Assembly (NCBI RefSeq): GCF_016903815.1
Contig: NZ_CP069971.1
From: Escherichia coli
GTDB taxonomy: Bacteria > Pseudomonadota > Gammaproteobacteria > Enterobacterales > Enterobacteriaceae
Length of the DNA stretch: 48,644 nucleotides
Direction: 5' to 3' (one strand)
Shown here piece by piece: positions 15,626 through 41,987 of this stretch; position 1 is the first letter of the stretch, and each line of letters starts with the position of its first letter. Below the pieces are notes generated by a model. The model ran no database searches and was not told the origin of the DNA. It saw only the letters and a program-made list of their open reading frames with translations. The translations under genes and the position numbers were made by a program.

Positions 15626-15634
15626 ATTAATTCC

Positions 15635-22630: not shown

Positions 22631-25415
22631 AACTTAATCTCCGTTGTTGGAACATATGAGCACTCAATTTCTTCTCAAAATCAGAATATCCCGCATCTAA
22701 TGCTCTTTTAGCTGCCGCCTCAGTTTCCTTTGGTGAACCAGCCGGAAGATTGATTACAGGTGAATAGGTTATTCCACCAGTCACAGCATTAACGTTCTGG
22801 CGAGGTCCAGAAGTCCCGGCGGCAGATATCCCGTGAGGTGATAAATTTGATTGCCCGAACTTGGTTGCTATTGCATTCTGTAAGCTGTTATTCCTGCTAA
22901 CGCCTGATGCCAGAGTAGTCATTATTGCACCACCTGACTTTGTTAGCTGTGAGAATGGACCTTTTTTCGCGTCAGAGAACGGTAAATACTCACGTACAGA
23001 AGAAAAAACGCCTTTCACTTCATTAATTAAAGCATTTGCTTTTGATTTTATCCCAGTGATTAACGTCTCAATTATTTTTGCGCCTGACTCACTCCAGTTT
23101 ATTCCAGACAAATAAGCCGTTACAGATTGGAATGCTCTTATAAAGAGTCCAACTGGTGAAAAACGCATAAAAACAGATACCAGTGTATCTATGATTTTCT
23201 TTCCTGTTTCGCTCCAGTTAATACCAGAAAGGTAATTTATTGTAAGTTTAAATGCTTTAATTAAGAACGGAAGCGGAGACATCCATTTAAAAGCACTAAT
23301 TAATGTACTGTAAATTCTTACTCCTGCCGAACTCCAGTTTATGTTGGAAAGATAATCCCATGCTTTACCAAACATAGATATAATCCATCCATTGAGATCA
23401 AAGTTTAAGATAAAGTTTTTTATAGCTTCAAACGATTTAACTGTATATTCCTTAACAGAAGGCCAAACTCTGACAGCATAATCTCTGATCTTATCCCAGT
23501 TCTGATAGAGCAATATTCCTGCGGCAACCAGCGCAGATATAGCCATCTGAATCCACCCGAAGGGTGTTAGCTTTGTCGCTACAGATAAAGCCAGCATAGC
23601 TACCCTACACGCTATAACCACACTTTTCATGGTTAGAAACGCACCTGCCGCCATCACAATCTGAGACACAAAATTGGGGTTGTTAGCTACAAATTCACTA
23701 ATTTTTGTAATCAGCGGAACCAAAACACTAAGCGCGGCATTCAAAGCAGGTTGCAAGGCCTGACCAAAACTTAATGATGCATTGCTAGCCTGAATACGTA
23801 ATTGTTTCAATCGCTCCGCATTGTCTTTCGTTATGTTGGCAAAATCGCGGTCAATAACAGCACTTCCAGCACCAAGAGATGTTGCTTTGATTCTCTGGTA
23901 TTCCTTCCAGTTTTGAATCATCGGACGAACAAAGTTCTGAACCTGCATATCGCCAAATAGCTCACCAAGTAACTTCTGATCTCCGTTCTTAGTCATTTTC
24001 ATGACAGAATGCATTGCAGCTTCGAATGGATTCTTCCCTTTTTTCTGCGCTGTTGTGACAATTTTATATAAATCTACACCGAAATTTTTCTTTGCTTTTT
24101 TTAGTGTTTCAGGGGAAAGTATTTTCGCCAAAAAGTTGTTCATATTATTAGCAGCCTCATCCGAAGTTGCAGCACCTTTGCGAGCTATCTGCAAAGCTGC
24201 CCCCATCGTCGCGGCGGCTTCTTTACCTCCCATTTTTAATGCCTGGAACTGGGCACCAAGCACAGGAAGATTTTTGGCCATATCTTTAAATTCAAAGTTT
24301 CCCTCTTTCCCTGCCTGAACCAGAATCCCCATTGCAGACTTCATTTGAGATGGATCAATCTTCAATGAGTCACTTAATGTAAATGATGCTTTCGAGACAT
24401 CGAGGATATCAGAGCCAGTAGCTGTAGCTGTTCGCCCAATAGTTAGTAGATTCGCCTGAGCCTCTTTATAATCCTGCCCAGCAGCGACGAGAAAACCCTG
24501 AGCAGCCTGAATATCAGATGCAAACTGGTTGGTAGCCGTTCCGGTAACAAGCATCGCCTGCCCCATCGCCTGAACTTCTTCCGGCTTCATATCTGCCGTA
24601 AGACCAATCATTTTGTTTTCACGATTGAAATTTGCTGCATTGTTAGCAGCAGCAAATGCACCAGCCGCTACAGCACCAGTTTGTAATCCTGACCTTACAA
24701 GTTGACTCTTTGCCTCACCAAGATGCTCTCGCTTCAATTCACGCTGCCTTTCCAACGCGCGGTTTAACTCCTCCTGAGCACGTTTTACTGCAAGAACATT
24801 TTTCCGTGCTTCAGCCAACGCATTTTTATAGCTGTTAATTTTATCAATACGTTGTTTTTCTAATGCCCGGTTAAGTTCCTCCTGCTGTTTTTTCACTTGC
24901 TGAACATTTGCTCTGGCTAAAGCCAAAGCCGTTCTGTAGCGGTTAACCTGCTCAACGCTACGGACCTGAGCCTCACGATTACGATCAATGCTGGCTTTAA
25001 GCTCTTTCTCTCTTGAGGCCAAAGCTCTGGCAGATGTATCAGCTCCCTGATAGGCAGACTTTAAAGCGGCCAGTTCTTCACGCTGAGAACGTAGTGATGC
25101 TCGTAAATTCGATGAATGTGTTTTTGCCTTCTCAAAGTCACGAAGCATCGCTCTGGTTGGATTGGCCGTGTTTTTTATTTGCTTCTGTAACTCTTCAACG
25201 CGAGCGGCAGCTTTATGATATTCGAGGGCAGTCTGTCCAACCTTTACTTTTACAGATTGTAGCTTTTGAATTTCCCCATGTTCTTTCGTTAATCCAGCAA
25301 GCTCGGCATTTAATTTAGCAACAGCCTGATTAGCTGTAGTAAAACTTTTGGGGAGAGAGGCGGCAACTTTGCCGCCAATTTCAAAAGCCAGCTTAAAGTT
25401 CTTATTGCTGGCCAT
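22623..25415 (-). CDS. tail tape measure protein
   Basis: 930 aa; coiled-coil N-terminal half, hydrophobic middle segments. Confidence 0.85.
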   Translation of the reverse strand: MASNKNFKLAFEIGGKVAASLPKSFTTANQAVAKLNAELAGLTKEHGEIQKLQSVKVKVGQTALEYHKAAARVEELQKQIKNTANPTRAMLRDFEKAKTHSSNLRASLRSQREELAALKSAYQGADTSARALASREKELKASIDRNREAQVRSVEQVNRYRTALALARANVQQVKKQQEELNRALEKQRIDKINSYKNALAEARKNVLAVKRAQEELNRALERQRELKREHLGEAKSQLVRSGLQTGAVAAGAFAAANNAANFNRENKMIGLTADMKPEEVQAMGQAMLVTGTATNQFASDIQAAQGFLVAAGQDYKEAQANLLTIGRTATATGSDILDVSKASFTLSDSLKIDPSQMKSAMGILVQAGKEGNFEFKDMAKNLPVLGAQFQALKMGGKEAAATMGAALQIARKGAATSDEAANNMNNFLAKILSPETLKKAKKNFGVDLYKIVTTAQKKGKNPFEAAMHSVMKMTKNGDQKLLGELFGDMQVQNFVRPMIQNWKEYQRIKATSLGAGSAVIDRDFANITKDNAERLKQLRIQASNASLSFGQALQPALNAALSVLVPLITKISEFVANNPNFVSQIVMAAGAFLTMKSVVIACRVAMLALSVATKLTPFGWIQMAISALVAAGILLYQNWDKIRDYAVRVWPSVKEYTVKSFEAIKNFILNFDLNGWIISMFGKAWDYLSNINWSSAGVRIYSTLISAFKWMSPLPFLIKAFKLTINYLSGINWSETGKKIIDTLVSVFMRFSPVGLFIRAFQSVTAYLSGINWSESGAKIIETLITGIKSKANALINEVKGVFSSVREYLPFSDAKKGPFSQLTKSGGAIMTTLASGVSRNNSLQNAIATKFGQSNLSPHGISAAGTSGPRQNVNAVTGGITYSPVINLPAGSPKETEAAAKRALDAGYSDFEKKLSAHMFQQRRLSFG

Positions 25416-25420: not shown

Positions 25421-25603
25421 TTAATCCTCATTAAACACATCAATCCATGCGACGATTCGCCTCAACCGAAGCGAAAGCCAGTAGGATATAGGTGTTGATT
25501 GAGATGATTGAGATAGAGAACTCGCGGCCCTCATTATTTGCTTATCAATAGGTTTTTGCTCATCAAAACCTACGAGAGCAAAAAATTCTGTACCTTTTGA
25601 CAA
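25421..25603 (-). CDS. frameshift extension of the tail assembly chaperone (E+E'-like product via -1 shift)
   Basis: Overlapping ORF in the -1 frame; the slippery site TTTTTTG (minus strand, plus-strand A6 at 25580-25585) links the two frames. Confidence 0.55.
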   Translation of the reverse strand: MSKGTEFFALVGFDEQKPIDKQIMRAASSLSQSSQSTPISYWLSLRLRRIVAWIDVFNED

Positions 25604-25851
25604 ACTTTAACAAAGTCTTTCGCTGGCAATCCATTCAGATACTCTATTGGACGGCCAATACAGCGAGCAGCCAAGGCTGCATGGACTTTATTATCAAGTG
25701 ATGTTTGAACTGAAACATGCCCTTGAGATTGCAGTAAGTCCGATACCTCTAAAATATCACTGCCTTTTAGGTTGTCTAAATCAAGGTTGAGTTCAGTCAC
25801 CGGCTCAAAGTCTTCAAAACGATATTCTTTACTTAATTTAACAGTTTCCAT
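25570..25851 (-). CDS. tail assembly chaperone (gpE-like)
   Basis: 93 aa, immediately upstream of the tape measure gene; ends in a T6 slippery run. Confidence 0.65.
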   Translation of the reverse strand: METVKLSKEYRFEDFEPVTELNLDLDNLKGSDILEVSDLLQSQGHVSVQTSLDNKVHAALAARCIGRPIEYLNGLPAKDFVKVCQKVQNFLLS

Positions 25852-25860: not shown

Positions 25861-26382
25861 TTATAAACCTAAATCATCACGAACGCTTTTTAATATATCT
25901 TCACCATCAAAGATACAAATAAAGTTCAACTTATCAATTTCCAGGACTTCTTTTCCATCAATAAATAATTTGATATAGAGAACTTCAAATTCATTCTCTG
26001 AATCAGTAGCCTTTGCCACCTGTAGCGAACCTAAATCCAGTTTCTTAGGGTTTAGCTTCATTGAAGCCCGAATAGGAACCGTTTTATATTTTCCTGTTCC
26101 TGCATCATAAACCTGCTGGCTACCGCGAAAATCTACCTGATGCGATGAGGATAGAAATAATTTTGTACCAGCAGAGGTAAGAGTTCGCCATTTAAGAGAG
26201 ACAGTCATTGGTTTGAAATGCCCCAGAGTTCCGCTCTCAAGCTCTCCAGCGATACCTGCACCACTAACAGTTTCTGTCATCATCTCAATTGATGGCAGCT
26301 TTGCGTCAGCAACACCGATAATACGGTTTCCCTCACCGTATACTGTAAAGTTAATAAGTCTCTCAGGAATTTGATTGCTCAA
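25861..26382 (-). CDS. tail tube protein
   Basis: 173 aa; downstream of the sheath gene. Confidence 0.75.
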   Translation of the reverse strand: MSNQIPERLINFTVYGEGNRIIGVADAKLPSIEMMTETVSGAGIAGELESGTLGHFKPMTVSLKWRTLTSAGTKLFLSSSHQVDFRGSQQVYDAGTGKYKTVPIRASMKLNPKKLDLGSLQVAKATDSENEFEVLYIKLFIDGKEVLEIDKLNFICIFDGEDILKSVRDDLGL

Positions 26383-26398: not shown

Positions 26399-27862
26399 TT
26401 ATTCAGAAAACAAGTTCAGCAGATAATCAGGATTATATTCCATGACGAACTCTATATCTCTGGCAGGTGAGAATGGTGTCATTTTTACATGGAATTTAAC
26501 AATCCCGTCCATCAATGACGTAATCGTGTTTTCAGACTGATCAAAGGTAACAACACCACCTGCAATATCCTGATTACCTGTGAGGCCGTTAAGCCAAATA
26601 TTCGCACTTGTAACAATCGATTCAATTAATCGACGGTTTGCAGGATTGTCTATTTTTGACCAATGCGAAAGAATTAACGTATTACCCACCCAGTTAAACA
26701 TACGTCGGCAAACACGAAATGCGTCTTTGGGGTCTGTAGATGTTGGATAAATAGCATTACGGTTTCCCCATGATTTCCAACCATCAAAATTAAGGCTTGT
26801 TACAATCCCCTGTCCATTTAAGTAGTTTGCCTGGCTAATGTTAAGCCATACTTCACTGCCATCTTTACGTACAGCACCGTCCATCTGTAGTTTTATATTT
26901 GACGGAGAACGTGATGGAATATCACCATACTGACTATCCAGCAAGCATGTTGCGGCCGCTAAATGGGTTGAGTGATGGTAAATATTGTCACCAAGTTTCA
27001 CCATCGGCCAGCACACTGTCTGGTTAGCGGCCATGTGATTATTGTTCTGTTTCCATTCAGGAACAGCCGAGTAATCACTGATAGTAGATTTATCGGTCGG
27101 TGCATCAGTTATGGCTTCTGCTTTGAACAATTCACTAATCAACGCGGCTTTAGCCGCCATTAGCTGACCAACTTCACTATCAGAACTAAATCCAGGCGCA
27201 ATCACTTGTCCAGGAACCAACTTGAAGCGGGGATACACATCAGACAGTAACTCAAGCCCTGTATTGGCTTTAGTGTTGGAATCCACACCACCGATAATGT
27301 CATTTTTAGTTACGGCACCGGGATCAAGATGCGTATAACTAACCTTAAGAGTAGCGTCTTTTTCGGTAATTTTTCCTCCGCTAATAGCGGTAATGACCGT
27401 ATAGCCATTATCATCCAGCGCCAGCACATAATCGGTATCAACCGTTAATCCTGCAGAATCACCATCTGCTTTTTTCACAACAACAGATTTATATAAGACA
27501 CCATCGTTAGAGAGCGTACCTTTCCCGCCAGAAAGTTTTACTACCTCATCAGTTACGTCTTTCTTATGCTTTGCTGGATCAAGCACATTGATAAATACAA
27601 CTGGCGCAACACCATATATTCCAAATGCGACTTTAATTACTTCGCTTAAAGTATATTTCTCGAAGTTTGTGCTATATCCTATTTTAGATACGGCCTCTGC
27701 GTATGTATAAGCAATGATAGGTTTATTTACCGCTGAGGCTGGATCTTCCAACTGATTAACAGGAGCTGTACCAAATGCGACAATCAACCCAGCACTAACT
27801 TGTACTGGAGGAGTTATATATGTAGCCAGCTCAGATATATAAATACCGTGGCGATATCCCAT
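26399..27862 (-). CDS. tail sheath protein
   Basis: 487 aa; MGYRHGIYISELATYITPP... typical contractile-sheath start. Confidence 0.85.
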   Translation of the reverse strand: MGYRHGIYISELATYITPPVQVSAGLIVAFGTAPVNQLEDPASAVNKPIIAYTYAEAVSKIGYSTNFEKYTLSEVIKVAFGIYGVAPVVFINVLDPAKHKKDVTDEVVKLSGGKGTLSNDGVLYKSVVVKKADGDSAGLTVDTDYVLALDDNGYTVITAISGGKITEKDATLKVSYTHLDPGAVTKNDIIGGVDSNTKANTGLELLSDVYPRFKLVPGQVIAPGFSSDSEVGQLMAAKAALISELFKAEAITDAPTDKSTISDYSAVPEWKQNNNHMAANQTVCWPMVKLGDNIYHHSTHLAAATCLLDSQYGDIPSRSPSNIKLQMDGAVRKDGSEVWLNISQANYLNGQGIVTSLNFDGWKSWGNRNAIYPTSTDPKDAFRVCRRMFNWVGNTLILSHWSKIDNPANRRLIESIVTSANIWLNGLTGNQDIAGGVVTFDQSENTITSLMDGIVKFHVKMTPFSPARDIEFVMEYNPDYLLNLFSE

Positions 27863-28152
27863 TATTTAATCTCCATGATAGAAGAAGAAACTCTAGAGTA
27901 CATTACATACTCGACACTGGTTTTATCAGAAAGTCTTTTTTCTGCATCTGCAAAATCACTGGTTGCCACAAACAAACACTTTGCACCAGGAATATGTGAT
28001 ATTAATTTTTCACACTCTGGAGATAAGCCATTCTTAAATAGTTTATGCTTCAAAATTGAGAGTTGAGGGATTGTTGGTCCTATATATACAAATGTTTGAG
28101 CAACATCTTCCTTCTTTTCTATATCTTCTTTACTACTTTTCTTATTAGACAT
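27862..28152 (-). CDS. hypothetical protein
   Basis: 96 aa ORF coupled to neighbours. Confidence 0.4.
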   Translation of the reverse strand: MSNKKSSKEDIEKKEDVAQTFVYIGPTIPQLSILKHKLFKNGLSPECEKLISHIPGAKCLFVATSDFADAEKRLSDKTSVEYVMYSRVSSSIMEIK

Positions 28153-28638
28153 TTAGATAAACTCCTGAGACTGAATATTCTGAGGCTTTAATACTAGCCA
28201 CGTTCCAGTTGCTTCCGTTATCCAATATGGATATGGTTGATCATCAAACATTCGCCATCTGATATCACCCTGAAAGAGAAATTTCTCTTCAAGTAAAGGC
28301 TTCTCCTGGAAATGAAACATCATCCTTTCAAGAAGAGCCATTACCCATTCATATCCAGTATGGTCCTCACAAAAACCACCTAGAAGAAACTTAACCTTAA
28401 CTTCATCCGTTTCAGGCTGCATTCCTCCTTCCGTTGGTCTGATAATCACATGAGGAAATTCTGGCGATTTATCTGGAGATGGTTGTGATTTAGGAGGCAA
28501 GTACCCTTTAAATATTGTTGGAACAAACAATTTAATATCGCTGTCTGTTTCATCATAAGGAGGCCCCTGCACTAATAAATCATGGAAAACCTCATGTTCC
28601 AACCGATTTTTTATTGCATCTATCAAAAGATTAATCAA
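28153..28638 (-). CDS. putative neck/tail completion protein
   Basis: 161 aa; position between head and tail modules. Confidence 0.4.
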   Translation of the reverse strand: MINLLIDAIKNRLEHEVFHDLLVQGPPYDETDSDIKLFVPTIFKGYLPPKSQPSPDKSPEFPHVIIRPTEGGMQPETDEVKVKFLLGGFCEDHTGYEWVMALLERMMFHFQEKPLLEEKFLFQGDIRWRMFDDQPYPYWITEATGTWLVLKPQNIQSQEFI

Positions 28639-28979
28639 ATCGGCATTCCTCTGTTAGTATTAACAGTGAGAGTTATTTCCAATACACCAACATTATCTGA
28701 TACTTCATCAACAATATAATTTTTACCGTTGATTTTCATTGACTGGTCTTTGACAGGGAGAACAGGAAAATCTTTTCTTGAAACAAATAATATTATTTGC
28801 CCCTGATTTATTCCCTCTGCAAACTCAGCATATGAGCGTTTATTACGCTCATGAATAAGGTCTGTATCAATAACGGCAAGGATATCCTTGCCGTCTATGT
28901 TATATGTATCGGCAAACTCTTTTTCATTGAGGAATATTGCAGAAATATCTTGCGCTATAACCTCTTTGAAGGAGTTCAT
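28635..28979 (-). CDS. putative head-tail connector/head completion protein
   Basis: 114 aa; position only. Confidence 0.4.
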   Translation of the reverse strand: MNSFKEVIAQDISAIFLNEKEFADTYNIDGKDILAVIDTDLIHERNKRSYAEFAEGINQGQIILFVSRKDFPVLPVKDQSMKINGKNYIVDEVSDNVGVLEITLTVNTNRGMPI

Positions 28980-29371
28980 TACTTCTTATTACCTTTTTTT
29001 TGTGTTGATTTTTTCGCATTACTGGTATCAGAAGTAGCTACAGATTCAGATGAATCATCAGCAACCATTTCCTCATTGCCGCCATCATCCTCAAACTCAA
29101 CCTCGAATACACAGCTACCCGCCTCCGTTCGCGTAATCAACCCCGCGTCCACAGCATCATTAACAGCAGATGCGTATCCATGCTCAAAAGCTAACTTAGC
29201 AGCATCATAGCCCCCAGCCGATGCCAAATCACCATCCTCTTCGGTGGCAATAGCATGTCCTGACGCAATCAGTTCGGCAATTCTGGAGTTATCCATTAGC
29301 CCATTAAGCAAACGGCCCGCTTTTAGCGAGCCGTGGCTTATCGTATCAATGTTTTTAATCAGTCTGGCCAT
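28979..29371 (-). CDS. hypothetical acidic protein downstream of the major capsid gene
   Basis: 130 aa. Confidence 0.4.
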   Translation of the reverse strand: MARLIKNIDTISHGSLKAGRLLNGLMDNSRIAELIASGHAIATEEDGDLASAGGYDAAKLAFEHGYASAVNDAVDAGLITRTEAGSCVFEVEFEDDGGNEEMVADDSSESVATSDTSNAKKSTQKKGNKK

Positions 29372-30415
29372 TTAAACCACCTTAGCCACCAGATAGGCAT
29401 CAGCCACACCAGGATTAGGCAGTGGAGATGACTTCATGGCAACATAACGGCCAGCCGGCTTACGAGTTACCCAGGTGTCTGGAACTCGTGGCGACTCAAC
29501 AATCGTTAGAGTCTTTTCGGCGTCATCTACAAGCTCTACAGCACCATACAGCATCGTTCCTCGACCAGGAGAGCCAAAGAGGATCTTATCTTCCGGTACT
29601 AATGGTTCTGGTTTTCCTGTTTTATCATTGCGAATAAGTTCGTCGTAACCATAAAAATCGACACCTTCAAGATTGCCATAATGAGTTACGCCTTCTTCTA
29701 ACTCCTTAGGCTCAATATACCCAAGCTCTTTTCGGCGATTATCAAGATATTTAGTTACTGCTTCATTTTTAACGAAGGCATCAACAACTTTTGCGCCCAT
29801 TACGGCAACACGAGGTGTAAAACCTGAAGTTAGTGATACCCGACGTTTCCAGTTGCGAACATTGACCAACGGATCTGATTTTGCTGCACTCCATAAATCA
29901 TCACCTGTCAGTTCAAGATATGGTTTATCTCCTTCCTCTTCAGGCCAAAAATAAACTGTGTCATCCACTCCTTCACCAACAATATCAACCTGCCCCGTAA
30001 ACAAGACTTGTGCACACATCCATTCTTCACGGCGGTTAACCATTTCATCAAGCTCAAGCAAATCTTTACCTAATTGCTCGGCGGCTCGTTCTGCTGGCGA
30101 TTTTGCGTTGTAAATATTCTCACCCGGAAGCCTGTTTAAAAGCAGCTCGGCTGTTGTTACCAAATCAGGTGCAACAAGTGGTGGCTCCAGAGTTCTCGTT
30201 ACAAAGCCGCGTCGCTCAACGGTTTTTGAGCCAAAACCTTTACCAACAAACGGAGCCATAGTACGGCCACCGCGAACAAAATCCAGATCAACTTTCTTTG
30301 TATTAAAGGTCTGAACACCAGGAAAAAAGGTACGAAGAAGAAAACGACGAGCCTTGAAATTCTGAATAACAGGCTCAAGCATTGTACGTCGTTCAAAAAT
30401 ATCAATATTCGGCAT
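29372..30415 (-). CDS. major capsid protein (lambda gpE-like)
   Basis: 347 aa; gene order decoration-capsid as in lambda. Confidence 0.75.
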   Translation of the reverse strand: MPNIDIFERRTMLEPVIQNFKARRFLLRTFFPGVQTFNTKKVDLDFVRGGRTMAPFVGKGFGSKTVERRGFVTRTLEPPLVAPDLVTTAELLLNRLPGENIYNAKSPAERAAEQLGKDLLELDEMVNRREEWMCAQVLFTGQVDIVGEGVDDTVYFWPEEEGDKPYLELTGDDLWSAAKSDPLVNVRNWKRRVSLTSGFTPRVAVMGAKVVDAFVKNEAVTKYLDNRRKELGYIEPKELEEGVTHYGNLEGVDFYGYDELIRNDKTGKPEPLVPEDKILFGSPGRGTMLYGAVELVDDAEKTLTIVESPRVPDTWVTRKPAGRYVAMKSSPLPNPGVADAYLVAKVV

Positions 30416-30435
30416 AAAAATACGACCTCTTTATA

Positions 30436-30819
30436 TTATGCAGATGGATTTTGTTGTGCGGTATTAAGGAATATCCCAACCTTCCGGCAAGCCAGATATA
30501 CATCGGCAATCTTTGCTGATTCAGGAAGGACAACCGCATGTGCATTGAACATTCCGGTCAGCCATGCTGTTCCAACTTGCGCTGAATCAGTCGCATCAAT
30601 ACTATGTTGAGCGATACAATACGGTTCTTTTGCCACCCCCTCACCAGAGAGATTTATTGGTGCCACAGTGACAACATTTGTTGTCTGATCAATACTGACA
30701 AAAGCAAGTAACTCACCCCGTTTTACTTTACCGCTGGCAAGTTTAATACTTGTTGGAATTGCTGGCATACCACCAGAAATAATCAGATTATCTGGTTCAA
30801 ATGAAAAAGACTCTCGCAT
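30436..30819 (-). CDS. head decoration protein (gpD-like)
   Basis: 127 aa directly upstream of the capsid gene. Confidence 0.65.
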   Translation of the reverse strand: MRESFSFEPDNLIISGGMPAIPTSIKLASGKVKRGELLAFVSIDQTTNVVTVAPINLSGEGVAKEPYCIAQHSIDATDSAQVGTAWLTGMFNAHAVVLPESAKIADVYLACRKVGIFLNTAQQNPSA

Positions 30820-30828
30820 AAACTCACC

Positions 30829-31917
30829 TTAATTTTTATCGCGGTTTTTAAATACTGACCCAATAACATTTTTTACTGCTTCAGCCTGTTTGTTGCCGTT
30901 GTTTTCTGGTTGATTAACATCAACTGAATCATTCACCTCACTTGCGTCTTCTTGCCGTTGATTAAGAAAGTTTTTGTTACGCGCTCGCTCTGCATTCATA
31001 ATTTCCAAAGCAAGTTCAGCCGCAGAAACTCCTGTTTTGAATTTTGCATTCTTAACCAGGTCGTCATGACCTGGAATTACGCTATTCTCGATTGTTTCAA
31101 TGCGCTCGCGTTCTGATTTAACGCCCTCGTCTTTACCAGCATTAAAAACCTGATTGTATAATTCTGGATGTTTATTTTTTAATTCATCAAGAGTCACAAC
31201 ATCGTCCTCATTTTGTTCATTTAATTCAGTAGATAATTCATTTTTATTTTGTGGCAACTTTGCGAGCGAATCAGGTAATTTTGAAAACCTTGATGCTTCA
31301 AAAGTTATTCCATTGAGCGAAAGCATCCCTTCCTTTATAGAAGCGGATAAGCGCATTGGTTTTTCAACTTCGTCAGCAAATCCAAGCTCTACAGCCTCTT
31401 CTGCATTTAGCCATGTTTCCTGATCCATTAGTTCAATTAATTTATCCTCAGAAAGCCCTGTTTTCTCCTTATATGCAGATAAAATACTATCTCGTATCTT
31501 ATCCATCATCTCAGCAATATCACGTAGTTCATCTGCATCACCAGCAGCAAATGTCCACGGATTATGGATCATCATCATAGCATTAGATGGGATAACAACT
31601 TTATCACCTGCCATTGCAATAATGGTTGCAGCCGATGCAGCAATACCATCAATATAAACAGTAATATTAGCCTTATGACGTTTTAATGAAGAAAGAATAG
31701 CTTGAGCAGTAAAAACAGAACCACCATAACTATTAATTTTTACGTTGATAGCATTTGATGATATATTCTTTAATTTATTAACTATGTCAGAAGAAGAAAC
31801 CTCATCAAATTCGCCAATATATCCGTAGATTAAAAGTTCAGCCGGAGAGTCATCTTCACCCGTGCTATTTTTTATTTCCCACCAATTAGCCATCATCTGT
31901 CTCCATATTTTGTTCAT
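30829..31917 (-). CDS. prohead protease, ClpP-like (S14) with C-terminal scaffold-like acidic region
   Basis: ...INSYGGSVFTAQAI...YIDGIAASAATIIAMAGDKVVIPSNAMMMIHNPW. Confidence 0.75.
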   Translation of the reverse strand: MNKIWRQMMANWWEIKNSTGEDDSPAELLIYGYIGEFDEVSSSDIVNKLKNISSNAINVKINSYGGSVFTAQAILSSLKRHKANITVYIDGIAASAATIIAMAGDKVVIPSNAMMMIHNPWTFAAGDADELRDIAEMMDKIRDSILSAYKEKTGLSEDKLIELMDQETWLNAEEAVELGFADEVEKPMRLSASIKEGMLSLNGITFEASRFSKLPDSLAKLPQNKNELSTELNEQNEDDVVTLDELKNKHPELYNQVFNAGKDEGVKSERERIETIENSVIPGHDDLVKNAKFKTGVSAAELALEIMNAERARNKNFLNQRQEDASEVNDSVDVNQPENNGNKQAEAVKNVIGSVFKNRDKN

Positions 31918-33460
31918 TTACCTCAGAAACAGGAGGCGTAATCAGCCCCAACTCACGGCGAGCATTCTCTTCTCTGCCACAAATTTGTGCTGTTTCTTCC
32001 CAGTTAAGACCTGACATTTCAGCCGCTTCCTTTTCACGGGTAGAGAATGTTTCCTCAACACGCAGTTTTGCAGCTTTGACTTCTTTAAGGGGATCTAATT
32101 GGCCTTGTGATGGGCCATACCATTGAGCGCCACTCCATGCAGCGCGATATTCAGGCCCATAAAAAAAACCAGGGGCAATAACACGACCTTTAGCAACGGC
32201 TTCGGCCAACCATTCCTCATAGATCGGTTGGCAAAATGACTGAACCATCCAGTCACGTCGCATACGGAACATTTTCCAGGCTTCAAGTAATGCGGCCCTG
32301 CTTGCGCTATAACTTGCTGTAAAATGCTTTACCAAGAGTTCGTAAGGGAGTTCTAAAGCAGCCCCAATTTGACGGCATATGGCGACAACAAAACCATCAA
32401 ATGCCGTATTTGGTCGCCCGGGATTTGCTGTATCTATCGACTCACCTTCACCCAAACTTACTATGGAGCCATTCCCCATTTCTTGGGTGTTATCATCATG
32501 GTTATCGATCTGCTCGTACTGAGGGATACCCGATTCACCGACTGGCCCATCAGGAGCGTCTGTTTTAATAAAGACAGTAAACATCCCTGACACAACCGCA
32601 GCAACCAATTCAGCATCGGTGTATCGTCCTAACTGCTTCAATGCTTCAATTACAGGAGCAAGGACAGGAACGCCACGGCGTTGCCCAGGCCTTTCAAAAT
32701 CCTGCATGACATGCAGAATATTTCTTCTTCCTGTTTTACTCCCATATGCGGGAATACGTTCCCACTTGCGGGTTACAAAACCAGAAGTCCCGGCTGGGTG
32801 ATGTTTTGCAACCCAGTACGCCACAGGCTCGCTAAATTCACCAACCTCTACGCCACCGTAAAGATTTGGTATAAAACGATCCTCTGGATTGCAAACACGA
32901 TCACCTTCAATTAAATAGACGCACAAATCATATATAACACCCTTACGCTTAATAACTGGTAGCGCAGCAAATATATCGCCAGATGTTAACGCAGATATTT
33001 GGACCAATGATTGCAATTGTCCAAAAGTACACATTCTTGATGCATCACAATTTGGAGAATCAGCCCATAATCTAAACTCACGCTCAACATGCTTTTCCCA
33101 TGCTCGCGCTTCTTCCTGCGTCATCCCCAAGAAATCGGCATCAATGTTCGCATTTAGTTTTAAACCGGAACCAACAACGTTTGTCCTGATAGTTTTTATT
33201 GCGCCAACCGATAGCGGGTTTCCCATGAAGAGATCACGAGAACGCTCACGCAATTTATCTATATTTTTAACAATATCATCATCAGGGGAACCAGCTTTAC
33301 TAAACCAACCCCTTAATGATTTTTTATGAGTGCTTGCACCATGACGTGAATATCCAAGGTTATTAATACCTTCAAGTGCTTCTAACCGTTTTCTTGCCAA
33401 AGCTCGATTTAATGCCCTCTGAGGTGAAAACGGCGCAATAACTCGATCAAGAATATTCAT
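31886..33460 (-). CDS. portal protein (lambda gpB-like)
   Basis: 524 aa between the gpW-like and protease genes. Confidence 0.75.
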   Translation of the reverse strand: MNILDRVIAPFSPQRALNRALARKRLEALEGINNLGYSRHGASTHKKSLRGWFSKAGSPDDDIVKNIDKLRERSRDLFMGNPLSVGAIKTIRTNVVGSGLKLNANIDADFLGMTQEEARAWEKHVEREFRLWADSPNCDASRMCTFGQLQSLVQISALTSGDIFAALPVIKRKGVIYDLCVYLIEGDRVCNPEDRFIPNLYGGVEVGEFSEPVAYWVAKHHPAGTSGFVTRKWERIPAYGSKTGRRNILHVMQDFERPGQRRGVPVLAPVIEALKQLGRYTDAELVAAVVSGMFTVFIKTDAPDGPVGESGIPQYEQIDNHDDNTQEMGNGSIVSLGEGESIDTANPGRPNTAFDGFVVAICRQIGAALELPYELLVKHFTASYSASRAALLEAWKMFRMRRDWMVQSFCQPIYEEWLAEAVAKGRVIAPGFFYGPEYRAAWSGAQWYGPSQGQLDPLKEVKAAKLRVEETFSTREKEAAEMSGLNWEETAQICGREENARRELGLITPPVSEVNEQNMETDDG

Positions 33461-33696
33461 AAATCTCTTATCACCACTCGTTTAATTCGTGGGCCTCGGC
33501 GTATACCTGCTGATAATCTTTCTACTTCATTACGCCAGTAATCCATCTCTTTTCTGACTTCTGATAAATCCGCACGAGTTAACTGCCGCGTACCAAATTT
33601 ATATGACTGACCGCCAATAGCAATAGCGCGATATGCTTCCCGCCAGACAGATAACATCTCTCTGGCTTCAGTCAGAGAAAATGCTTCATTGTTCAT
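33457..33696 (-). CDS. head-tail joining protein (gpW-like)
   Basis: 79 aa between large terminase and portal, as in lambda. Confidence 0.6.
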   Translation of the reverse strand: MNNEAFSLTEAREMLSVWREAYRAIAIGGQSYKFGTRQLTRADLSEVRKEMDYWRNEVERLSAGIRRGPRIKRVVIRDL

Positions 33697-33707
33697 TTAT
33701 ATTTCCT

Positions 33708-35564
33708 CTATATGGTTACGCCTTTACTTATAACTCTACGGCGTCTTCTACGTATACCTGACGAGTTCTGCACATACACATTACCTCGCATTTCCTGTTC
33801 GGCAAGCCAGTTAAAATTAGGGTTCAGAATTTCCATCGCGGCAGTTGCATAGTTACGGCAATCAAGAGGCTCGTTACGCTCGTAGACTTTCACCCACTTT
33901 TCTTTTGTCTGCCCATTTTTATATTCAAATATTTTTTTCTCTGATAATAATCCTTTAAAGTATTCGGTATCATATCCTCTGTCAGAATCTAATGGGAAAT
34001 GCATATAACCAGGACCAGGATCATGTAGTTTAATTCTTGCCATGATGGTCCCTTTACCATCATCAACCCCCAAATTAAACAACATAGCACCCACACGGTT
34101 ATTATTACTTGGCTTTCCTATAAATGGTAAACCTACCCCACCACGCCCCCTGATAGAGTATATTCGCCTTGATTCTCTCGGCTTAGTAAAGCGATATACC
34201 TCTGTCGTAAAATGCCCACCAGAGTCAATACAAACGGAAGAAATCTGTAATTTTCGACCGTCACGGAATGACCAGCTACGGAGTAAGTATTCATCAAGTT
34301 GTTTCCAGACAACATCTTGTGCGGGATCACCTGGGAATATTTTATATTCTATCCCCCATGACTCCTTACCTTTTCCCCAACCGACCAATTCACAAACTAA
34401 ATACGTGTCCTGTACGTCAACACCAGCACTTAACAATAAAACATCATCTGGTAAAAACTCTTCAAACCTTATTCTGCGTTGCAACAAGTATTCAGGATCG
34501 ATATCGTCTTTAGCATCCTCTTTCCATGGCTCACCCAGCTTAAGGTTAATAAACTCCATTAATCCATTTTTATCGCGGTTTCTGGTTGCTTCCGTAAATT
34601 CTTCAACCAGCTCTGACAATGCAACCCACGGGGAGTAAAGACTGTTAATATGAAAACCAACAATACCTTTAACTCCAGTATGTTCAGCTATCCATACCCC
34701 CTTCGCCAACCAATCAACGTCTGGTTTACCAGATCCGCGCATAATCCCGCCGCACTCACAGCACTCATATCTGGCCGTTTCCGGTAACGCCTCACCTGAA
34801 TCGCTCTTATCCCATCTGACTTGCGACCATTTCATCACCTGCATGGTGCCACAACATGGGCAAGGAACATGGTAGTAACGCTGATCGGAGAGCTTAAACC
34901 ACTTGTGGATTTTGCTCGTTTCCTCCAAAACAGGAGTAGAAACAAAAACTTTCTTACGATTATGAAAGTTGGTAGTACGCTGAATACCTAGTTTTAGTGG
35001 GTCGCCCTCCTGCGTCACACCGTAACGATCAATCTCATCAGCTAACAGTATTCGAATTGGCCTGGATGCAAGACCTGCTGGGGAATTAGCACCAACAAGT
35101 GCTATATATCCACCAGCGTAATGCTTCATACGTATAGTCGTGCTGGACTTTTTGGCTGCACCGCGCCCCTCTTTCCCTTCATGCAGCTTGTGTTTCAAAC
35201 CAGGGGAATATTTGAACGTCGGATCAATACGCTCCTTTGAAAAAGCCTCAGCCGCCTCTACCGTTGGATAAATCATCAACTGAGGAGATGGCTCCTGATC
35301 TGCAAAGTAACCCATAACATTTAGCTGTAATTCGGATTTACCAATTTGTGAGCTACATTGCATCACTACTGTTTCTGTATCAGCGTCACCAATAACATCC
35401 ATTGGTTCACGTAAATATGGCACTCGGCTTGTACGCCACGGCCCTGGCTCTGGAGACGTTCCCGGCGCTACATGACGATACTTATCAGCCCATTCGGAAA
35501 CAGTTAGCCGTGATTTAGGGCGAAGCGCACGGAAAAAAGCGGTGCTCCATACTGTTTCGCCCAT
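33708..35564 (-). CDS. terminase large subunit (lambda gpA-like)
   Basis: 618 aa; ...YHVPCPCCGTMQVMKW...RYECCECGG... Cys cluster and overall size. Confidence 0.85.
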   Translation of the reverse strand: MGETVWSTAFFRALRPKSRLTVSEWADKYRHVAPGTSPEPGPWRTSRVPYLREPMDVIGDADTETVVMQCSSQIGKSELQLNVMGYFADQEPSPQLMIYPTVEAAEAFSKERIDPTFKYSPGLKHKLHEGKEGRGAAKKSSTTIRMKHYAGGYIALVGANSPAGLASRPIRILLADEIDRYGVTQEGDPLKLGIQRTTNFHNRKKVFVSTPVLEETSKIHKWFKLSDQRYYHVPCPCCGTMQVMKWSQVRWDKSDSGEALPETARYECCECGGIMRGSGKPDVDWLAKGVWIAEHTGVKGIVGFHINSLYSPWVALSELVEEFTEATRNRDKNGLMEFINLKLGEPWKEDAKDDIDPEYLLQRRIRFEEFLPDDVLLLSAGVDVQDTYLVCELVGWGKGKESWGIEYKIFPGDPAQDVVWKQLDEYLLRSWSFRDGRKLQISSVCIDSGGHFTTEVYRFTKPRESRRIYSIRGRGGVGLPFIGKPSNNNRVGAMLFNLGVDDGKGTIMARIKLHDPGPGYMHFPLDSDRGYDTEYFKGLLSEKKIFEYKNGQTKEKWVKVYERNEPLDCRNYATAAMEILNPNFNWLAEQEMRGNVYVQNSSGIRRRRRRVISKGVTI

Positions 35565-35569
35565 GAGGT

Positions 35570-36121
35570 TTATTCTTCCTGCTTAATAAATCGGGATTCC
35601 TGGAGCGCCTGAAGCGCAAAATTAATCTCGTCTTCAATAATGCGTTCGATCTCCCTGGCTGTTTTGCCTTCACAACGGGGAGCTGCTCTTGGAGCAATAC
35701 TAAATAAGCGGCTACGCAATTCATTAGCTGCCAGAAATGCATCATCCCTGACCGCATCTTTAGCGATGAGAGAGCCTTCCTTTTCTTCAAATTCAAGGCG
35801 TTTCAGCTTTGCCTGATAAATTTTTTCTGCGGTCTTAGCCTTGTTGAATTGCACCGCAACACCGGAAGTACCACCAGCTAATCCGGCATCATCAGCGGGT
35901 AACTCTGGTTGTTCCGAAGATATCCCATGCCCTCTTTTTCCATTTTCAGCAGATACCTCACGACCAACCTGTCGGCTCGCTTCATAAGCCGCACTGGCTT
36001 TATCAAAATCCAGCTTGCCGCTTTTCAGCACTGGAATGCGACCGGAACGACAGAGCTTCGTAACCATTGCCGGAGAAATACCTTTCCGGCGGGCAAACTC
36101 TGACTTACTGACGATGGCCAT
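35570..36121 (-). CDS. terminase small subunit (Nu1-like)
   Basis: MAIVSKSEFARRKGISPAMVTKLCRSGRIPVL... HTH N-terminus; ATG overlaps the upstream gene stop (TAATG). Confidence 0.7.
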   Translation of the reverse strand: MAIVSKSEFARRKGISPAMVTKLCRSGRIPVLKSGKLDFDKASAAYEASRQVGREVSAENGKRGHGISSEQPELPADDAGLAGGTSGVAVQFNKAKTAEKIYQAKLKRLEFEEKEGSLIAKDAVRDDAFLAANELRSRLFSIAPRAAPRCEGKTAREIERIIEDEINFALQALQESRFIKQEE

Positions 36122-36711
36122 TACTTGCAACCATTGGCAAGATACTGAACAAATCCCTCATGCGTTTCATGCGCGTCGTGGTACTGACGATAAACATCCA
36201 GCAACAATGCAATTTCCATATCCGTCGCGGGAATACGTTCTTTATCAATAGCCAGGTACTTAATTTGAACAACAGGGGAAGAATTATCGTCTTCTTCCTG
36301 CGGCTGTTCATCGCTTAACATTTCGTCAAGCTCTGCATCATTAAACCCAAGCAGATCAATATCAAAATCATCATCCATTAACTCTTTGACTTCTTCGGCC
36401 AGAAGCTGCATATCCCAGCCAGCATTTAAGGCCAGCTTGTTATCTGCAATCCTGTACGCCTTCTTCTGTTTTTCAGAAAGGTTACTCAACCGAATCGCCG
36501 GAACTTTATCCATTTCCAGAATTTCGGCTGCTGCAAGCCGCCCATGCCCCGCAATCAGTTCATTCTTTTCATCGATCAGCACAGGATTAGTGAAACCGAA
36601 CTCACGGATACTGTTCACCAACTGTTCAACTTGCTCATCTGAATGAGTCCGTGAATTTTTGGCATATCTGAGCAGCTTACCGACTGGTAAATATTCGATT
36701 TTTAGAGCCAT
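36121..36711 (-). CDS. ParB-like N-terminal domain (ParB/Srx fold) protein
   Basis: 196 aa; ...LIDEKNELIAGHGRLAAAEIL...; paralog of 39378-40001. Confidence 0.7.
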   Translation of the reverse strand: MALKIEYLPVGKLLRYAKNSRTHSDEQVEQLVNSIREFGFTNPVLIDEKNELIAGHGRLAAAEILEMDKVPAIRLSNLSEKQKKAYRIADNKLALNAGWDMQLLAEEVKELMDDDFDIDLLGFNDAELDEMLSDEQPQEEDDNSSPVVQIKYLAIDKERIPATDMEIALLLDVYRQYHDAHETHEGFVQYLANGCK

Positions 36712-37268
36712 TTTTTAACCGCCATAACACAACAGGTTAAAGAAAACTGTTTAACTTATTGATACTAAAAGAGAAAAATGACGATCTTTTTACTCATAAA
36801 AAATCACACAAACCAGCATAATCATCTGATTTTATTAAGTTTTTATAAGTAAAAAGGATCTTGCGATGGTTTTTTGGTTAAAAGATTGGATGTATTTGCA
36901 TGATTTATAACGATTTTTATCAGAACAACATCACATTGGTTAAAGATCTGCGCGTATCTTGATGATCTAAAAGAAAATTTTCTACTTTCTTTTTACCAGC
37001 ACAAGCACAGCAAAAAATCACGTTTTCCCAATATTTTTCAATGAGATGAGTAAATTTCTTTTACCGCAACTTTTAACCTAACTTTTTTCACGTTTAGCTA
37101 GCCGAACATCGGGGTTCGAATGACCCGCATCCAACGCTTTTGTCCAGAAGGACCCAATTCTGCCGGACGATGAAACGATGCTCGTGCACCCCCACAGACA
37201 GCCAGCGAGCGACGCTACAGAACACAGTGAATACACTCTGCATAACAACACCATCAACCACACGATGA
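36712..37268. other. AT-rich non-coding region with clustered GATC sites; candidate cos/packaging and late-promoter region
   Basis: About 550 bp without a credible ORF, upstream of the terminase operon. Confidence 0.35.
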
Positions 37269-38004: not shown

Positions 38005-39384
38005 CTACTTAATCAACGGCCGGAAAGCCGCCAGCACATCATCAGATCGTCCGATTGTTGAACCACCAGGCAACGGCAACTCAAACTCAAAACGAACAGC
38101 TTTCTCCAGACTCGCCCAACTAAGGGAATCATCGTTAATGACGTGCAAATACCAGCTCTTACAGTTGAATATTGACCGCTTAATCCTGAAACCATGTACA
38201 CGACACAACTGCTTCACTTCCTCATCAGAGTGAAACTTCTGGTAAAACCAGTGCCCCTTCCGGTACAACGCGGTAAAACCGTCATGATCAATAAAATAAA
38301 GCCGGCTTTTGGAACTCGCCGCTTGTGTTTGCTTCAGGACTGTTTCCAGTTCTCCACGGCTACGGCCAGAAAAGAATATTGACCCACCAGCTTTACACAG
38401 GCCTTTCAGAACCGTCAGAACGGACCATTCAGCCTCGACACTATCGACCGAGTTCAAAACGCTATCGCAAATCACGTAGTCGTAACGCCCTCGCGTTTTT
38501 AAGTCGTCCACCAGCGTATCAATCATCCGGTTTGTTGCGGCCCTATCCAGAGTGTTTCCAGCGCCCTTACGGCGGAAAAGCTCGAGATCATGCAGGTTAT
38601 ATCCCTTTGCCCTGAGCATTCGCGCGTAGTCTCCCTGCCCCGAACCAAAATCAATTCCTCTTGGCGTCTTGGCAATGATCGGGAGGATCAACGACTCATA
38701 CAGATTTGATTTCAGGCTGCCACCATTACGCAACCGCATAAGCTGCGCATACGTCTGGATGTATGTTGTTTTCTCCAGATGAGAATACTCAAATACACCA
38801 TAAGTTTTATTCAGATAACTTTGGTATTTTTCCTTCTCAACATCAGGGATCACAAACACCGTTAGCGGTGTGCGCGTCATTTTCGCTGCTAATGCATACT
38901 GAGCACAGTGAATAACCTCACCAGACTGAGTAGCAACACAACCACCCCACGGACCATACTTGATAACCAGTTCCGCTATGTTCTTTCGAACATATGCCAT
39001 TTTCGCGCGCATATTGCCTGAGATCTGGCTTGCCGATACCTGAACAAAACCATGCTTATCTTCCAGACCGGACACCCTGCAACGCTCATCTCCGCTATCA
39101 AAATCCGTTCCGTTATGCAGTTGGTTAAACCGTACTTCGTCGTATACCGTCGTTTCACAGGGCAACACATACACCGCAGCACGCGTTATTCCCAACTTAC
39201 GTAGCGCCTTCGTCCTTTGGTGTCCCGCCACCAGCAAATCGCCGCGCACTATCAATGGCTTCACAAGCCCCAGCTCCCTGACGCTTTCCGCCAGCCTCGC
39301 AAGATCATCCTCACCGATAAAACGCGGGTTATATTCCGCGCCGCGTAGGTGCGTTATGTCGTAATTGAGGTGAAGCATCAGCAC
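38005..39384 (-). CDS. fusion protein: ParB-like N-terminal domain + class-I SAM-dependent methyltransferase-like C-terminal domain
   Basis: N-terminal ...LIVRGDLLVAGHQRTKALRKLG...; C-terminal GIDFGSGQGDYARML, DYVICDSVL, LCKAGGSIFFSG motifs; no DPPY/NPPY motif seen. Confidence 0.65.
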   Translation of the reverse strand: MLMLHLNYDITHLRGAEYNPRFIGEDDLARLAESVRELGLVKPLIVRGDLLVAGHQRTKALRKLGITRAAVYVLPCETTVYDEVRFNQLHNGTDFDSGDERCRVSGLEDKHGFVQVSASQISGNMRAKMAYVRKNIAELVIKYGPWGGCVATQSGEVIHCAQYALAAKMTRTPLTVFVIPDVEKEKYQSYLNKTYGVFEYSHLEKTTYIQTYAQLMRLRNGGSLKSNLYESLILPIIAKTPRGIDFGSGQGDYARMLRAKGYNLHDLELFRRKGAGNTLDRAATNRMIDTLVDDLKTRGRYDYVICDSVLNSVDSVEAEWSVLTVLKGLCKAGGSIFFSGRSRGELETVLKQTQAASSKSRLYFIDHDGFTALYRKGHWFYQKFHSDEEVKQLCRVHGFRIKRSIFNCKSWYLHVINDDSLSWASLEKAVRFEFELPLPGGSTIGRSDDVLAAFRPLIK

Positions 39385-41609: not shown

Positions 41610-41875
41610 TCATCATCTCCTGCCGCACATACAACCTCACAAAAAACATCAGCGGAATGTTTCTTTTTGAATGAATGGCGCTCAAAACCGCACTCAATAT
41701 CAGGCGCAAAAACATCCACCACATACGGTCTTTCAGAATGTTTGTTTTCCCAACGATAAACCGTAGTGACGTTGAAATGTTTTAACGCTTCACGGTACTC
41801 AACGCTGCCCGTCAGGTTTTTTGAGGTCAGGTATTGCAGGAGGTTTTTTACTACTTCACGGTCTTGTACTTTCAT
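41606..41875 (-). CDS. hypothetical protein, first gene downstream of cassette copy 3
   Basis: 89 aa; RBS supplied by the conserved leader. Confidence 0.45.
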   Translation of the reverse strand: MKVQDREVVKNLLQYLTSKNLTGSVEYREALKHFNVTTVYRWENKHSERPYVVDVFAPDIECGFERHSFKKKHSADVFCEVVCAAGDDE

Positions 41876-41987
41876 CGGGTTATCTCCGGTTTAACCAGGG
41901 CGGGTATCGCTCGGTTTCGGGTATAATCATAGGAAATTTTTTCCCACCTGCAAAGCACTTTTTATATAAATATATAATTATATAATT
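41876..41987 (-). promoter_or_regulatory. conserved promoter-leader cassette, copy 3 (four substitutions relative to copies 1 and 2)
   Basis: tatctccggtttaaccagggcgggtatcgctcggtttcgggtataatcataggaaattttttcccacctgcaaagcactttttatataaatatataattatataa. Confidence 0.6.

Follow-up and report, generated by a model that had tools for sequence, protein, structure and literature searches.

How a head and packaging apparatus of the lambda type came to be joined to a contractile tail of the P2 type is the question raised by positions 28153-36121 of a 48,644-nucleotide stretch of Escherichia coli DNA (contig NZ_CP069971.1), which is referred to here, at its full length, as the window. A first-pass annotation had read this interval as a mosaic virion module and presented its mosaicism as the feature of note. 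We arrive at a different picture: very probably the window is a temperate myovirus that persists in Escherichia as a circular plasmid of about 48.6 kb, and the interval is part of its complete late (virion) operon, an ancient module inherited as a unit and not a recent recombinant. The analysis comprised searches of Pfam, PHROGs, NCBIfam, Rfam, PDB and PLSDB, tblastn and hhalign comparisons with lambda, P2 and Mu (hhalign probabilities are given as P), and Foldseek searches with AlphaFold2 (AF2) models.

The window is a whole circular replicon, whose last bases run on into its first when it is aligned to the plasmid of E. coli ATCC 25922 (NZ_CP009073.1; 48,488 bp), which matches it end to end at 97-99% identity. 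It encodes an IncFII-type RepA (12868-13848; Pfam IncFII_repA 5e-44), and correspondence with the annotated record of that near-identical plasmid (97-99%) assigns to it ParA, a toxin-antitoxin pair with a toxin of the RelE/ParE type, holins and an endolysin. The element is a phage-plasmid by gene content, in that one extrachromosomal replicon combines plasmid replication and partition functions with a full set of phage genes. All the open reading frames (ORFs) named in the first-pass annotation exist on the minus strand where it had placed them, and the virion genes form a single unbroken run on that strand from 36711 to 14056, with intact, tightly packed ORFs. Their order is ParB-like nuclease, small terminase (TerS), large terminase (TerL), adaptor, portal, protease-scaffold, decoration protein, capsid and four neck genes, followed by the tail genes for sheath, tube, E/E', tape measure, X, D, V, U, W, J, I, fibres and tail fibre assembly protein (Tfa).

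The element itself is an already known and well-sampled 48.6 kb E. coli phage living as a plasmid. The 7,969-bp interval 28153-36121 occurs in about 60 PLSDB plasmids at 99-100% identity. At 98.9-99.4% it is found in two E. coli prophage records and in the Yersinia phages vB_YpM_39, vB_YpM_41 and vB_YpM_44 (OR545053-55), which were deposited as phages with Y. pestis EV76-CN as host. Among 5,426 complete E. coli genomes, 71 contain the block, which lies on a plasmid in 83 of its 84 places; most matching records are annotated only as 'unnamed' non-mobilizable plasmids. Phage-like plasmids of about 48-49 kb from E. coli, E. fergusonii and E. albertii (NZ_CP009073.1, NZ_CP070136.1) and the three vB_YpM records represent the same element, with 98.9-100% nucleotide identity over 28153-36121, collinearity along the whole genome and a common IncFII-type RepA; they differ from the window in the distal tail-fibre region and in a variable early region at 45.1-47.6 kb. 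Searches by accession or name for papers devoted to the element yielded nothing beyond a prophage survey in which vB_EcoM-613R2 is listed but not described. More distant plasmid relatives occur in E. albertii and Salmonella enterica subsp. salamae (CP053324.1). In the latter record the protease (2581-3647) and sheath (6692-8145) genes each align in two pieces, the sheath as two ORFs, which reflects either frameshift mutations or sequencing errors in an unannotated record. Membership in the 'pSLy3' phage-plasmid group was considered for these 48-kb plasmids and rejected on grounds of size, SSU5-type elements being about 100 kb long. The assignment of pSLy3 to the SSU5 supercommunity is that of Pfeifer et al. 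2021, in passages that state no size.

Inheritance as a unit is supported by distant relatives. The segment that extends from the ParB-like nuclease to baseplate I comprises 23 genes; 21 of them are collinear in the Vibrio phages X29 and XM1 (vB_VpaM_XM1), 17 in the Paenibacillus phage Lily, and 16 each in the Exiguobacterium phage vB_EalM-137 and the Fusobacterium phage Funu1; the same block is also present on the Anoxybacillus plasmid pBstUI51, and the relatives span three phyla. Amino-acid identities across the block are 24-66% for X29 and XM1 and 27-55% for Lily, and those of head and tail genes drop in parallel, from X29/XM1 through Lily/vB_EalM-137 to Funu1. From TerL to baseplate I the module is collinear with the X29/Lily type except for the gene after the capsid gene and a gpZ-like gene. 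The head-tail junction itself (27.9-28.2 kb) shows neither an alignment break relative to the ATCC 25922 plasmid nor a step in GC content, and among 50,697 phage records no enterobacterial lambdoid phage more than 70% identical in the head genes only, and no P2-like phage more than 70% identical in the tail genes only, appeared. Because the same head-tail block occurs gene for gene in three phyla, being 'mosaic' is not special to this element; a lambda-type head with a P2-type tail is an old, widespread and already sequenced pairing, which is mosaic in deep time only.

The Vibrio group of X29, phi 2, Rostov 7 and vB_VpaM_XM1 (proposed 'Weiviridae') is collinear with the window from cos to baseplate I (24-66% amino-acid identity) and has in common with it the slippery heptamer of E/E' and a homologous cos sequence, and its particles are myoviruses by electron microscopy. 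It differs by the presence of a gpZ-type neck gene, by its fibres and early genes and by an unrelated gene after the capsid gene, and X29 has integrases in place of the IncFII RepA of the window. Lily (Lilyvirus), vB_EalM-137, Funu1 and pBstUI51, from Gram-positive or fusobacterial hosts, have the same order from TerL to baseplate I at 24-55% identity and keep the gpZ-like gene; upstream of TerS they carry no ParB-like nuclease, or a larger methylase. The plasmid pBstUI51 (NZ_CP064061.1) is a 51-kb circle of the thermophilic Bacillota Anoxybacillus caldiproteolyticus whose capsid protein is 42.7% identical, which suggests an independent plasmid-borne member of the lineage.

With respect to its limits, the interval proposed as the module holds the head genes, but 28153-29371 comprises three neck genes, not head genes, and the block really starts with the gene beginning at 36711 and the cos site at about 37114-37125. 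The packaging region is organized as follows.

37114-37125, minus strand: candidate cosN, a probable 12-nucleotide cohesive end GGTCATTCGAAC, placed from record ends
36735-36946, minus strand: candidate cosB-like TerS binding repeats, TCTTT(T)AACC in three copies
36121-36711, minus strand: ParB-like nuclease, first gene after cos (Pfam ParB_N 3.8e-8; phrog_620 4.6e-75)
35570-36130, minus strand: small terminase TerS (phrog_57 7e-42; N-terminal helix-turn-helix-type hits only; likely start at the ATG at 36121)
33708-35564, minus strand: large terminase TerL of the gpA type (GpA_ATPase 7e-76; GpA_nuclease 1e-84)

The cos site emerged from the termini of deposited phage genomes. The record of vB_YpM_41 begins at window position 37125 (minus strand) with GGTCATTCGAAC, and that of vB_YpM_44 begins 12 nucleotides further on; XM1 has the homologous 12-mer GGTGCTCGCGAC at both record ends, the ends of the X29 record split within the same 12-mer, and the Lily record starts with GGTGCGCGTGAG. 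In this way five phage records have a start or an end at the homologous site, and X29 was reported with defined ends (PMC5690320). The site in the window and its flanks align with lambda cosN GGGCGGCGACCT, with invariant flank positions on both sides. Judged by these record ends, 37114-37125 is probably a lambda-like cosN with a 12-nucleotide cohesive end, accompanied by a cosB-like region: the 212-nucleotide stretch between cosN and the first gene contains all three TCTTT(T)AACC matches of the whole window, and X29 and XM1 have GTTAACA(C/G) repeats at the equivalent position. The TCTTT(T)AACC repeats are thus candidates for binding by TerS. The ParB-like nuclease stands at the same position in X29 and XM1 (59-62% identity) and belongs to the block by synteny. 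In all, ParB/Srx-type N-terminal domains occur in three distinct proteins, whose genes (36121-36711, 38005-39384 and 39378-40001) lie within the packaging region or immediately upstream of it. The designation of TerS as 'Nu1-like' proved to be a positional call: TerS matched neither the Pfam Nu1 family nor any NCBIfam model, and its alignment to lambda Nu1 (hhalign P=11) is limited to 31 N-terminal columns, the helix-turn-helix. TerS may have at most this N-terminal motif in common with Nu1.

Downstream of the terminase genes lie five head genes.

33457-33696, minus strand: head-tail adaptor of 79 amino acids in the gpW position (DUF6148 8.7e-16; phrog_118 'head-tail adaptor' 1e-28)
31886-33460, minus strand: portal protein of the lambda family (Phage_portal_2, PF05136, 7e-101)
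30829-31917, minus strand: ClpP-related head maturation protease with a C-terminal scaffold-like half (CLP_protease 2e-32)
30436-30819, minus strand: head decoration protein of the gpD family (phrog_49 2e-24; Pfam HDPD, PF02924, 0.0028, below cut-off)
29372-30415, minus strand: major capsid protein of the gpE family (Phage_cap_E, PF03864, 1.5e-55)

That the head and terminase genes follow the lambda order is borne out by Pfam and PHROGs and by hhalign comparisons of TerL, portal and capsid with lambda A, B and E (P=100, 99.9 and 99.6, respectively). Profile searches for a non-lambda assignment of the head placed these three proteins in lambda families, and the lambda-like character of the head stands. 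The relationship is distant: among the head genes only TerL (28% identity to lambda A) and the portal (27% to lambda B) match lambda in tblastn, and BLAST finds none of the others. In the PDB the portal matches 8vhx (8e-50) and lambda gpB 8k38 (3e-41), the latter being its second-best solved relative, and the capsid protein finds its best match among solved structures in lambda gpE 7vi9 (6e-17).

For the decoration protein the assignment is indirect. It scores 18.2 bits against an HDPD cut-off of 29.1 and shows no tblastn match to vB_EalM-137, and its PDB sequence search was empty. The decoration genes of Lily and vB_EalM-137, located at the same position, pass the HDPD cut-off (1.6e-19 and 5.7e-19), and since the window protein matches that of Lily (E 1.6e-10) and the Lily protein passes HDPD, it can be assigned to the gpD family by transitive homology. 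The adaptor was termed 'gpW-like', which rests on position and predicted topology, with no confirmation from profiles: no sequence match to lambda gpW was obtained with hhalign. Its AF2 model (predicted local distance difference test, pLDDT, 81.7) consists of a helix, a beta-hairpin, a helix and a disordered tail, which we take to be the layout of gpW; fold searches of the model were uninformative and gave no confirmation.

The protease is indeed of the ClpP type, as the first-pass annotation had stated: in addition to CLP_protease it reaches 219 bits with NF045542 ('head maturation protease, ClpP-related'; cut-off 120), and its residues 26-357 align to the protease-scaffold part of NF045540, a model of protease-scaffold-capsid fusions. 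An S49 (gpC) protease with a nested Nu3 scaffold was not recovered, and the departure from lambda is nevertheless smaller than was implied: the family is common and named, and weak alignments to lambda gpC (E 3e-4 over 128 columns) and to S49/SppA models (3e-5) are retained. Because this faint similarity has been kept, the enzyme is best viewed as a sister-family protease in the same slot, not an unrelated insert. The gene contains an in-frame internal ATG at codon 198, preceded by AAGGAAGGG, from which a nested Nu3-like scaffold could possibly be produced.

Taken as a whole, the window resembles lambda in the order of TerS, TerL, adaptor, portal, protease/scaffold, decoration, capsid and neck genes, in the homology of TerL, portal, capsid and decoration proteins, in a cosN-like site upstream of the terminase genes and in genome size (48.6 versus 48.5 kb). 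It differs from lambda in the type of protease (ClpP-related, S14-like, versus S49), in its contractile tail and in the additional ParB-like gene between cos and TerS, and for TerS, the adaptor and the gene in the FI position homology to the lambda counterparts is at most putative.

The neck genes connect the head to the tail.

28979-29371, minus strand: acidic 130-amino-acid protein in the position of lambda FI (phrog_5541 only)
28635-28979, minus strand: head closure protein (Hc1, gpFII-like; phrog_2551 3e-45; phrog_82 'Hc1' 3.6e-5)
28153-28638, minus strand: predicted tail terminator of 161 amino acids (AF2 model with pLDDT 76.8; Foldseek search of the PDB)
27862-28152, minus strand: conserved 96-amino-acid protein before the sheath gene (phrog_4089 1.4e-40)

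The closure protein gene is conserved in all relatives, and its product aligns to lambda FII with an hhalign E value of 0.0022 and P=12.8. The Foldseek matches of the terminator model in the PDB are mostly neck, collar and terminator proteins (the P74-26 neck at 3e-5, lambda gpU, T4 gp15, the pyocin R2 collar and the Mu terminator), and by its modelled structure the product of 28153-28638 is a tail terminator, with a gpU/gp15 fold. X29 and XM1 encode proteins 31-33% identical to the 96-amino-acid protein at the corresponding position. More generally, hhalign comparisons of the small head and neck proteins with lambda Nu1, W, D, FI, FII and U, P2 L, R and S, and Mu gp31 and gp35-38 were negative or weak.

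One neck component is missing. X29, XM1, Lily, vB_EalM-137, Funu1 and Epona (Faecalibacterium phage FP_Epona) carry a lambda gpZ-type gene between the closure and terminator genes, whose product matches lambda Z (hhalign P=97.3) and, in X29, Pfam Minor_tail_Z (9.6e-15). No such gene was detected by tblastn in the window, where the closure and terminator genes overlap by ATGA at 28635-28638, and it is also absent from the S. salamae plasmid relative. The 130-amino-acid protein is, among phages, confined to five near-identical records, and it is faster evolving than its neighbours, with 45% identity in the S. salamae plasmid versus 77-84% for them. Its size resembles that of lambda FI (130 versus 132 amino acids); it showed no hhalign profile match to FI, Z, U or the P2 or Mu neck proteins. 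That it has replaced gpZ is a speculation.

The tail genes up to baseplate I form one block.

26399-27862, minus strand: tail sheath of 487 amino acids (phrog_23 8e-95)
25861-26382, minus strand: tail tube (Phage_tube 3.5e-44; P=99.2 with P2 FII)
25421-25851, minus strand: tail assembly chaperones E and E+E' (Phage_TAC_7 1.5e-5)
22623-25415, minus strand: tape measure protein of 930 amino acids (PhageMin_Tail 1e-20; phrog_28 9e-107)
22412-22630, minus strand: gpX-like baseplate protein (Phage_tail_X 2.3e-4; P=77 with P2 X)
21421-22422, minus strand: gpD-like baseplate hub (Phage_GPD 6.8e-9; P=99.5 with P2 D)
20798-21418, minus strand: gpV-like spike (Phage_base_V 3e-7; Phage_spike 4e-7; P=99.2 with P2 V and 90.7 with Mu gp45)
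20334-20801, minus strand: gpU-like tail protein (Phage_P2_GpU 2e-22; P=96 with P2 U)
20017-20337, minus strand: gpW/gp25-like wedge protein (GPW_gp25 7e-5; phrog_43 4e-20; P=92 with P2 W)
18896-20020, minus strand: baseplate J (Baseplate_J 2e-54; P=99.3 with P2 J and 93 with Mu gp47)
18322-18903, minus strand: baseplate I (Tail_P2_I 3.9e-27; P=98.8 with P2 I)

The tail had been called 'P2/Mu-like', and the P2 half of this designation holds: for P2 FI, FII, X, D, V, U, W, J and I, nine in number, hhalign finds a tail protein counterpart in the window at P=77-99.5. Identity to P2 is 26-32%. A Mu-type tail had to be rejected, as only gp45 (V) and gp47 (J) were detected among the Mu homologues, with L, M, N, P, gp46 and gp48 not recovered, and the resemblance to the layout of the Mu tail is confined to the sheath-first order. 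The list of sheath, tube, E/E', tape measure, X, D, V, W, J, I and fibre was correct and omitted gpU (20334-20801).

By sequence, the only solved relative of the sheath protein is the pyocin R2 sheath 3j9q (6e-15); no Pfam family matched at E<=0.01, and the comparison with P2 FI gave P=98.5. The matches to PHROG 23, pyocin R2 and P2 FI cover the C-terminal 300 residues, and the N-terminal approximately 180 residues are without a family. The profile of E is close to neither P2 E (P=0.8) nor Mu gp41 (P=19.8). A -1 slippery heptamer, T_TTT_TTG, was read directly at 25579-25585, and the overlapping -1 ORF extends to 25421; X29 has the identical heptamer with the frameshift annotated in its record, and an E/E' frameshift is annotated for P2 as well. 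These sequence features indicate that the E/E' chaperones would be made by -1 frameshifting. Electron microscopy of X29 showed a myovirus with a 64-nm head and a 142-nm tail (PMC5690320), and XM1 has a contractile tail of 131 nm (PMC11432961). The tape measures of these phages comprise 878 and 824 amino acids, which amounts to about 0.16 nm per residue, and on this scale the 930-residue tape measure of the window predicts a tail of about 150 nm.

The tail resembles that of P2 and R-type pyocins in its homologous sheath, tube, X, D, V, U, W, J and I proteins and the -1 frameshift of E/E'. In contrast to P2, where these genes are distributed over three operons (V-W-J-I-H-G; FI-FII-E-T-U-D; X with the lysis genes), they form one block here (FI-FII-E-T-X-D-V-U-W-J-I-H), and the sheath is about 90 amino acids longer (487 versus 396). 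Homologues of the P2 head proteins N, O, Q and P were found in the window neither by tblastn nor by hhalign.

The fibre genes close the operon.

15913-18291, minus strand: tail fibre of 792 amino acids (Phage_fiber_2 1.9e-18; phrog_1419 6e-235 on the C-terminal half)
15635-15913, minus strand: ORF of 92 amino acids after the fibre gene (phrog_1361 5e-36, a PHROG without function)
14585-15625, minus strand: second fibre ORF of 346 amino acids (Gp34_trimer 8e-28)
14056-14583, minus strand: tail fibre assembly protein Tfa (Caudo_TAP 1e-35)

From its position, the 92-amino-acid ORF possibly encodes a fibre chaperone. The second fibre ORF is 65% identical to the C-terminal half of Mu S, and Tfa is 87% identical to Mu U and P2 G; both are recent acquisitions shared with Mu and P2. 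The ATCC 25922 plasmid and vB_YpM_41 carry a Hin/Gin-type invertase and an inverted fibre/Tfa segment. In the window, 14056-18291 contains no invertase, and the pair of second fibre ORF and Tfa corresponds to the inverted copy of the relatives, here in forward orientation and unfused to the fibre gene.

Several further features were noted outside the virion operon. A 114-nucleotide direct repeat occurs in three copies of 92-100% identity (734-847, 10170-10283 and 41872-41985), with partial inverted copies at 5359-5404 and 43087-43128 and an AT-rich palindromic core; its third copy ends in the ribosome-binding site and ATG of a minus-strand gene, and the repeat is found at three places in the ATCC 25922 plasmid, too. 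It looks like a reused promoter/operator-leader cassette. Rfam matches to isrK and C4 antisense RNA (6543-6615 and 6640-6728, both plus strand) lie just upstream of a 393-amino-acid ORF (6970-8151, plus strand) that is labelled 'ORF6N domain-containing' in a near-identical record, and this arrangement presumably resembles the c4-ant immunity region of P1/P7. The ryfA small RNA family is matched over its full length at 5875-6171 (minus strand; 142 bits versus a gathering score of 80). A tRNA-Met gene (CAT; 42884-42959, minus strand), annotated in vB_YpM_41 as well, lies between the lysis genes and an MT-A70 methyltransferase gene, and the RelE/ParE (HigB-like) toxin and its helix-turn-helix antitoxin (10759-11411, minus strand) adjoin the replication region according to the ATCC 25922 and vB_YpM_41 annotation.

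Could the locus still be a recent mosaic, in which a lambdoid head and packaging cassette lately recombined with a P2- or Mu-like tail within the Enterobacteriaceae? The assignment of head genes to lambda Pfam families and of tail genes to P2 families would fit such an event, as would the recently acquired distal fibre ORF and Tfa (65% and 87% identity to Mu/P2). A head swap is also possible in principle: FP_Epona has the same tail, neck, TerL and portal with an unrelated short prohead protease and a 530-amino-acid capsid protein, a natural exchange of the head core within the lineage, showing that such exchange happens, rarely. However, identity to lambda is only 27-28% (TerL, portal) and to P2 26-32%, the same junction and gene order recur with parallel divergence in elements of Vibrio, Paenibacillus, Exiguobacterium, Fusobacterium and Anoxybacillus, and no alignment break or GC step marks 27.9-28.2 kb, so that we consider a recent origin most improbable. 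Very unlikely, too, is a defective remnant, that is, cryptic prophage-like plasmid cargo or a tailocin-like device that yields no infectious phage. The description of most records as 'unnamed' non-mobilizable plasmids, the lack of a gpZ-type neck gene in the clade, and the missing fibre invertase and unfused distal fibre ORF of the window would fit such a remnant. Yet the ORFs of the block are without exception intact and tightly packed, the element has its head, packaging and lysis genes, identity of at least 95% across 71 genomes points to purifying selection, and records of 98.9-99.4% identity were deposited as phages, two of them starting 12 nucleotides apart at the predicted cos, as for virion DNA.

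A complete temperate myovirus with an anciently inherited virion module remains by far the most probable explanation, and some observations weigh against it. The family profiles used for hhalign held 3-7 sequences, which makes their negatives soft; neither sequence nor fold connected TerS, adaptor and closure protein with lambda Nu1, W and FII; and since the clade has no gpZ-type protein, its neck assembly is not directly copyable from distant relatives. FP_Epona documents head/tail exchange at least once in the lineage. Finally, no paper describing vB_YpM_39, vB_YpM_41 or vB_YpM_44 was found, and the element is known here from sequence alone.

For such a virus, the following course of assembly can be envisaged from the biology of lambda and P2. 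The gpA-type terminase would cut concatemers at the lambda-like cos just upstream of the operon, leaving cohesive ends of about 12 nucleotides, and would pump the DNA through the lambda-family portal into a capsid of gpE-type protein, presumably a T=7 head, which would be built around the ClpP-related protease with its scaffold tail and stabilized by the gpD-type decoration protein. The small adaptor and the gpFII-like closure protein would then seal the portal. The tail would be assembled separately from P2-type parts, namely the hub proteins D, V, X and U, the wedges W, J and I, the fibres and their chaperones, the 930-residue tape measure, the E/E' chaperones produced by -1 frameshifting, the tube and the sheath; the terminator of gpU/gp15 fold would cap it before it joins the head. 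As a more tentative and rather doubtful extension, a single ancient virion lineage may be spread over at least three phyla and have been captured by plasmids more than once (the IncFII-type elements of Escherichia and Salmonella, and pBstUI51), with loss of gpZ in the enterobacterial branch, where the 130-amino-acid protein may have taken over a neck or packaging role.

As a discovery the module is of limited weight, its sequence having been public many times and its type having been sequenced and imaged in Vibrio phages. The details added here are the lambda-like cosN with its probable 12-nucleotide end and the absence of the gpZ-type gene from the enterobacterial clade, and the common cos sequence and the missing gene are small, testable points for work on phage-plasmids and neck assembly. 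The main value lies in annotation: such common E. coli plasmids, that of ATCC 25922, a quality-control strain, among them, are better annotated as complete temperate myoviruses that package from a lambda-like cos than as cryptic plasmids.

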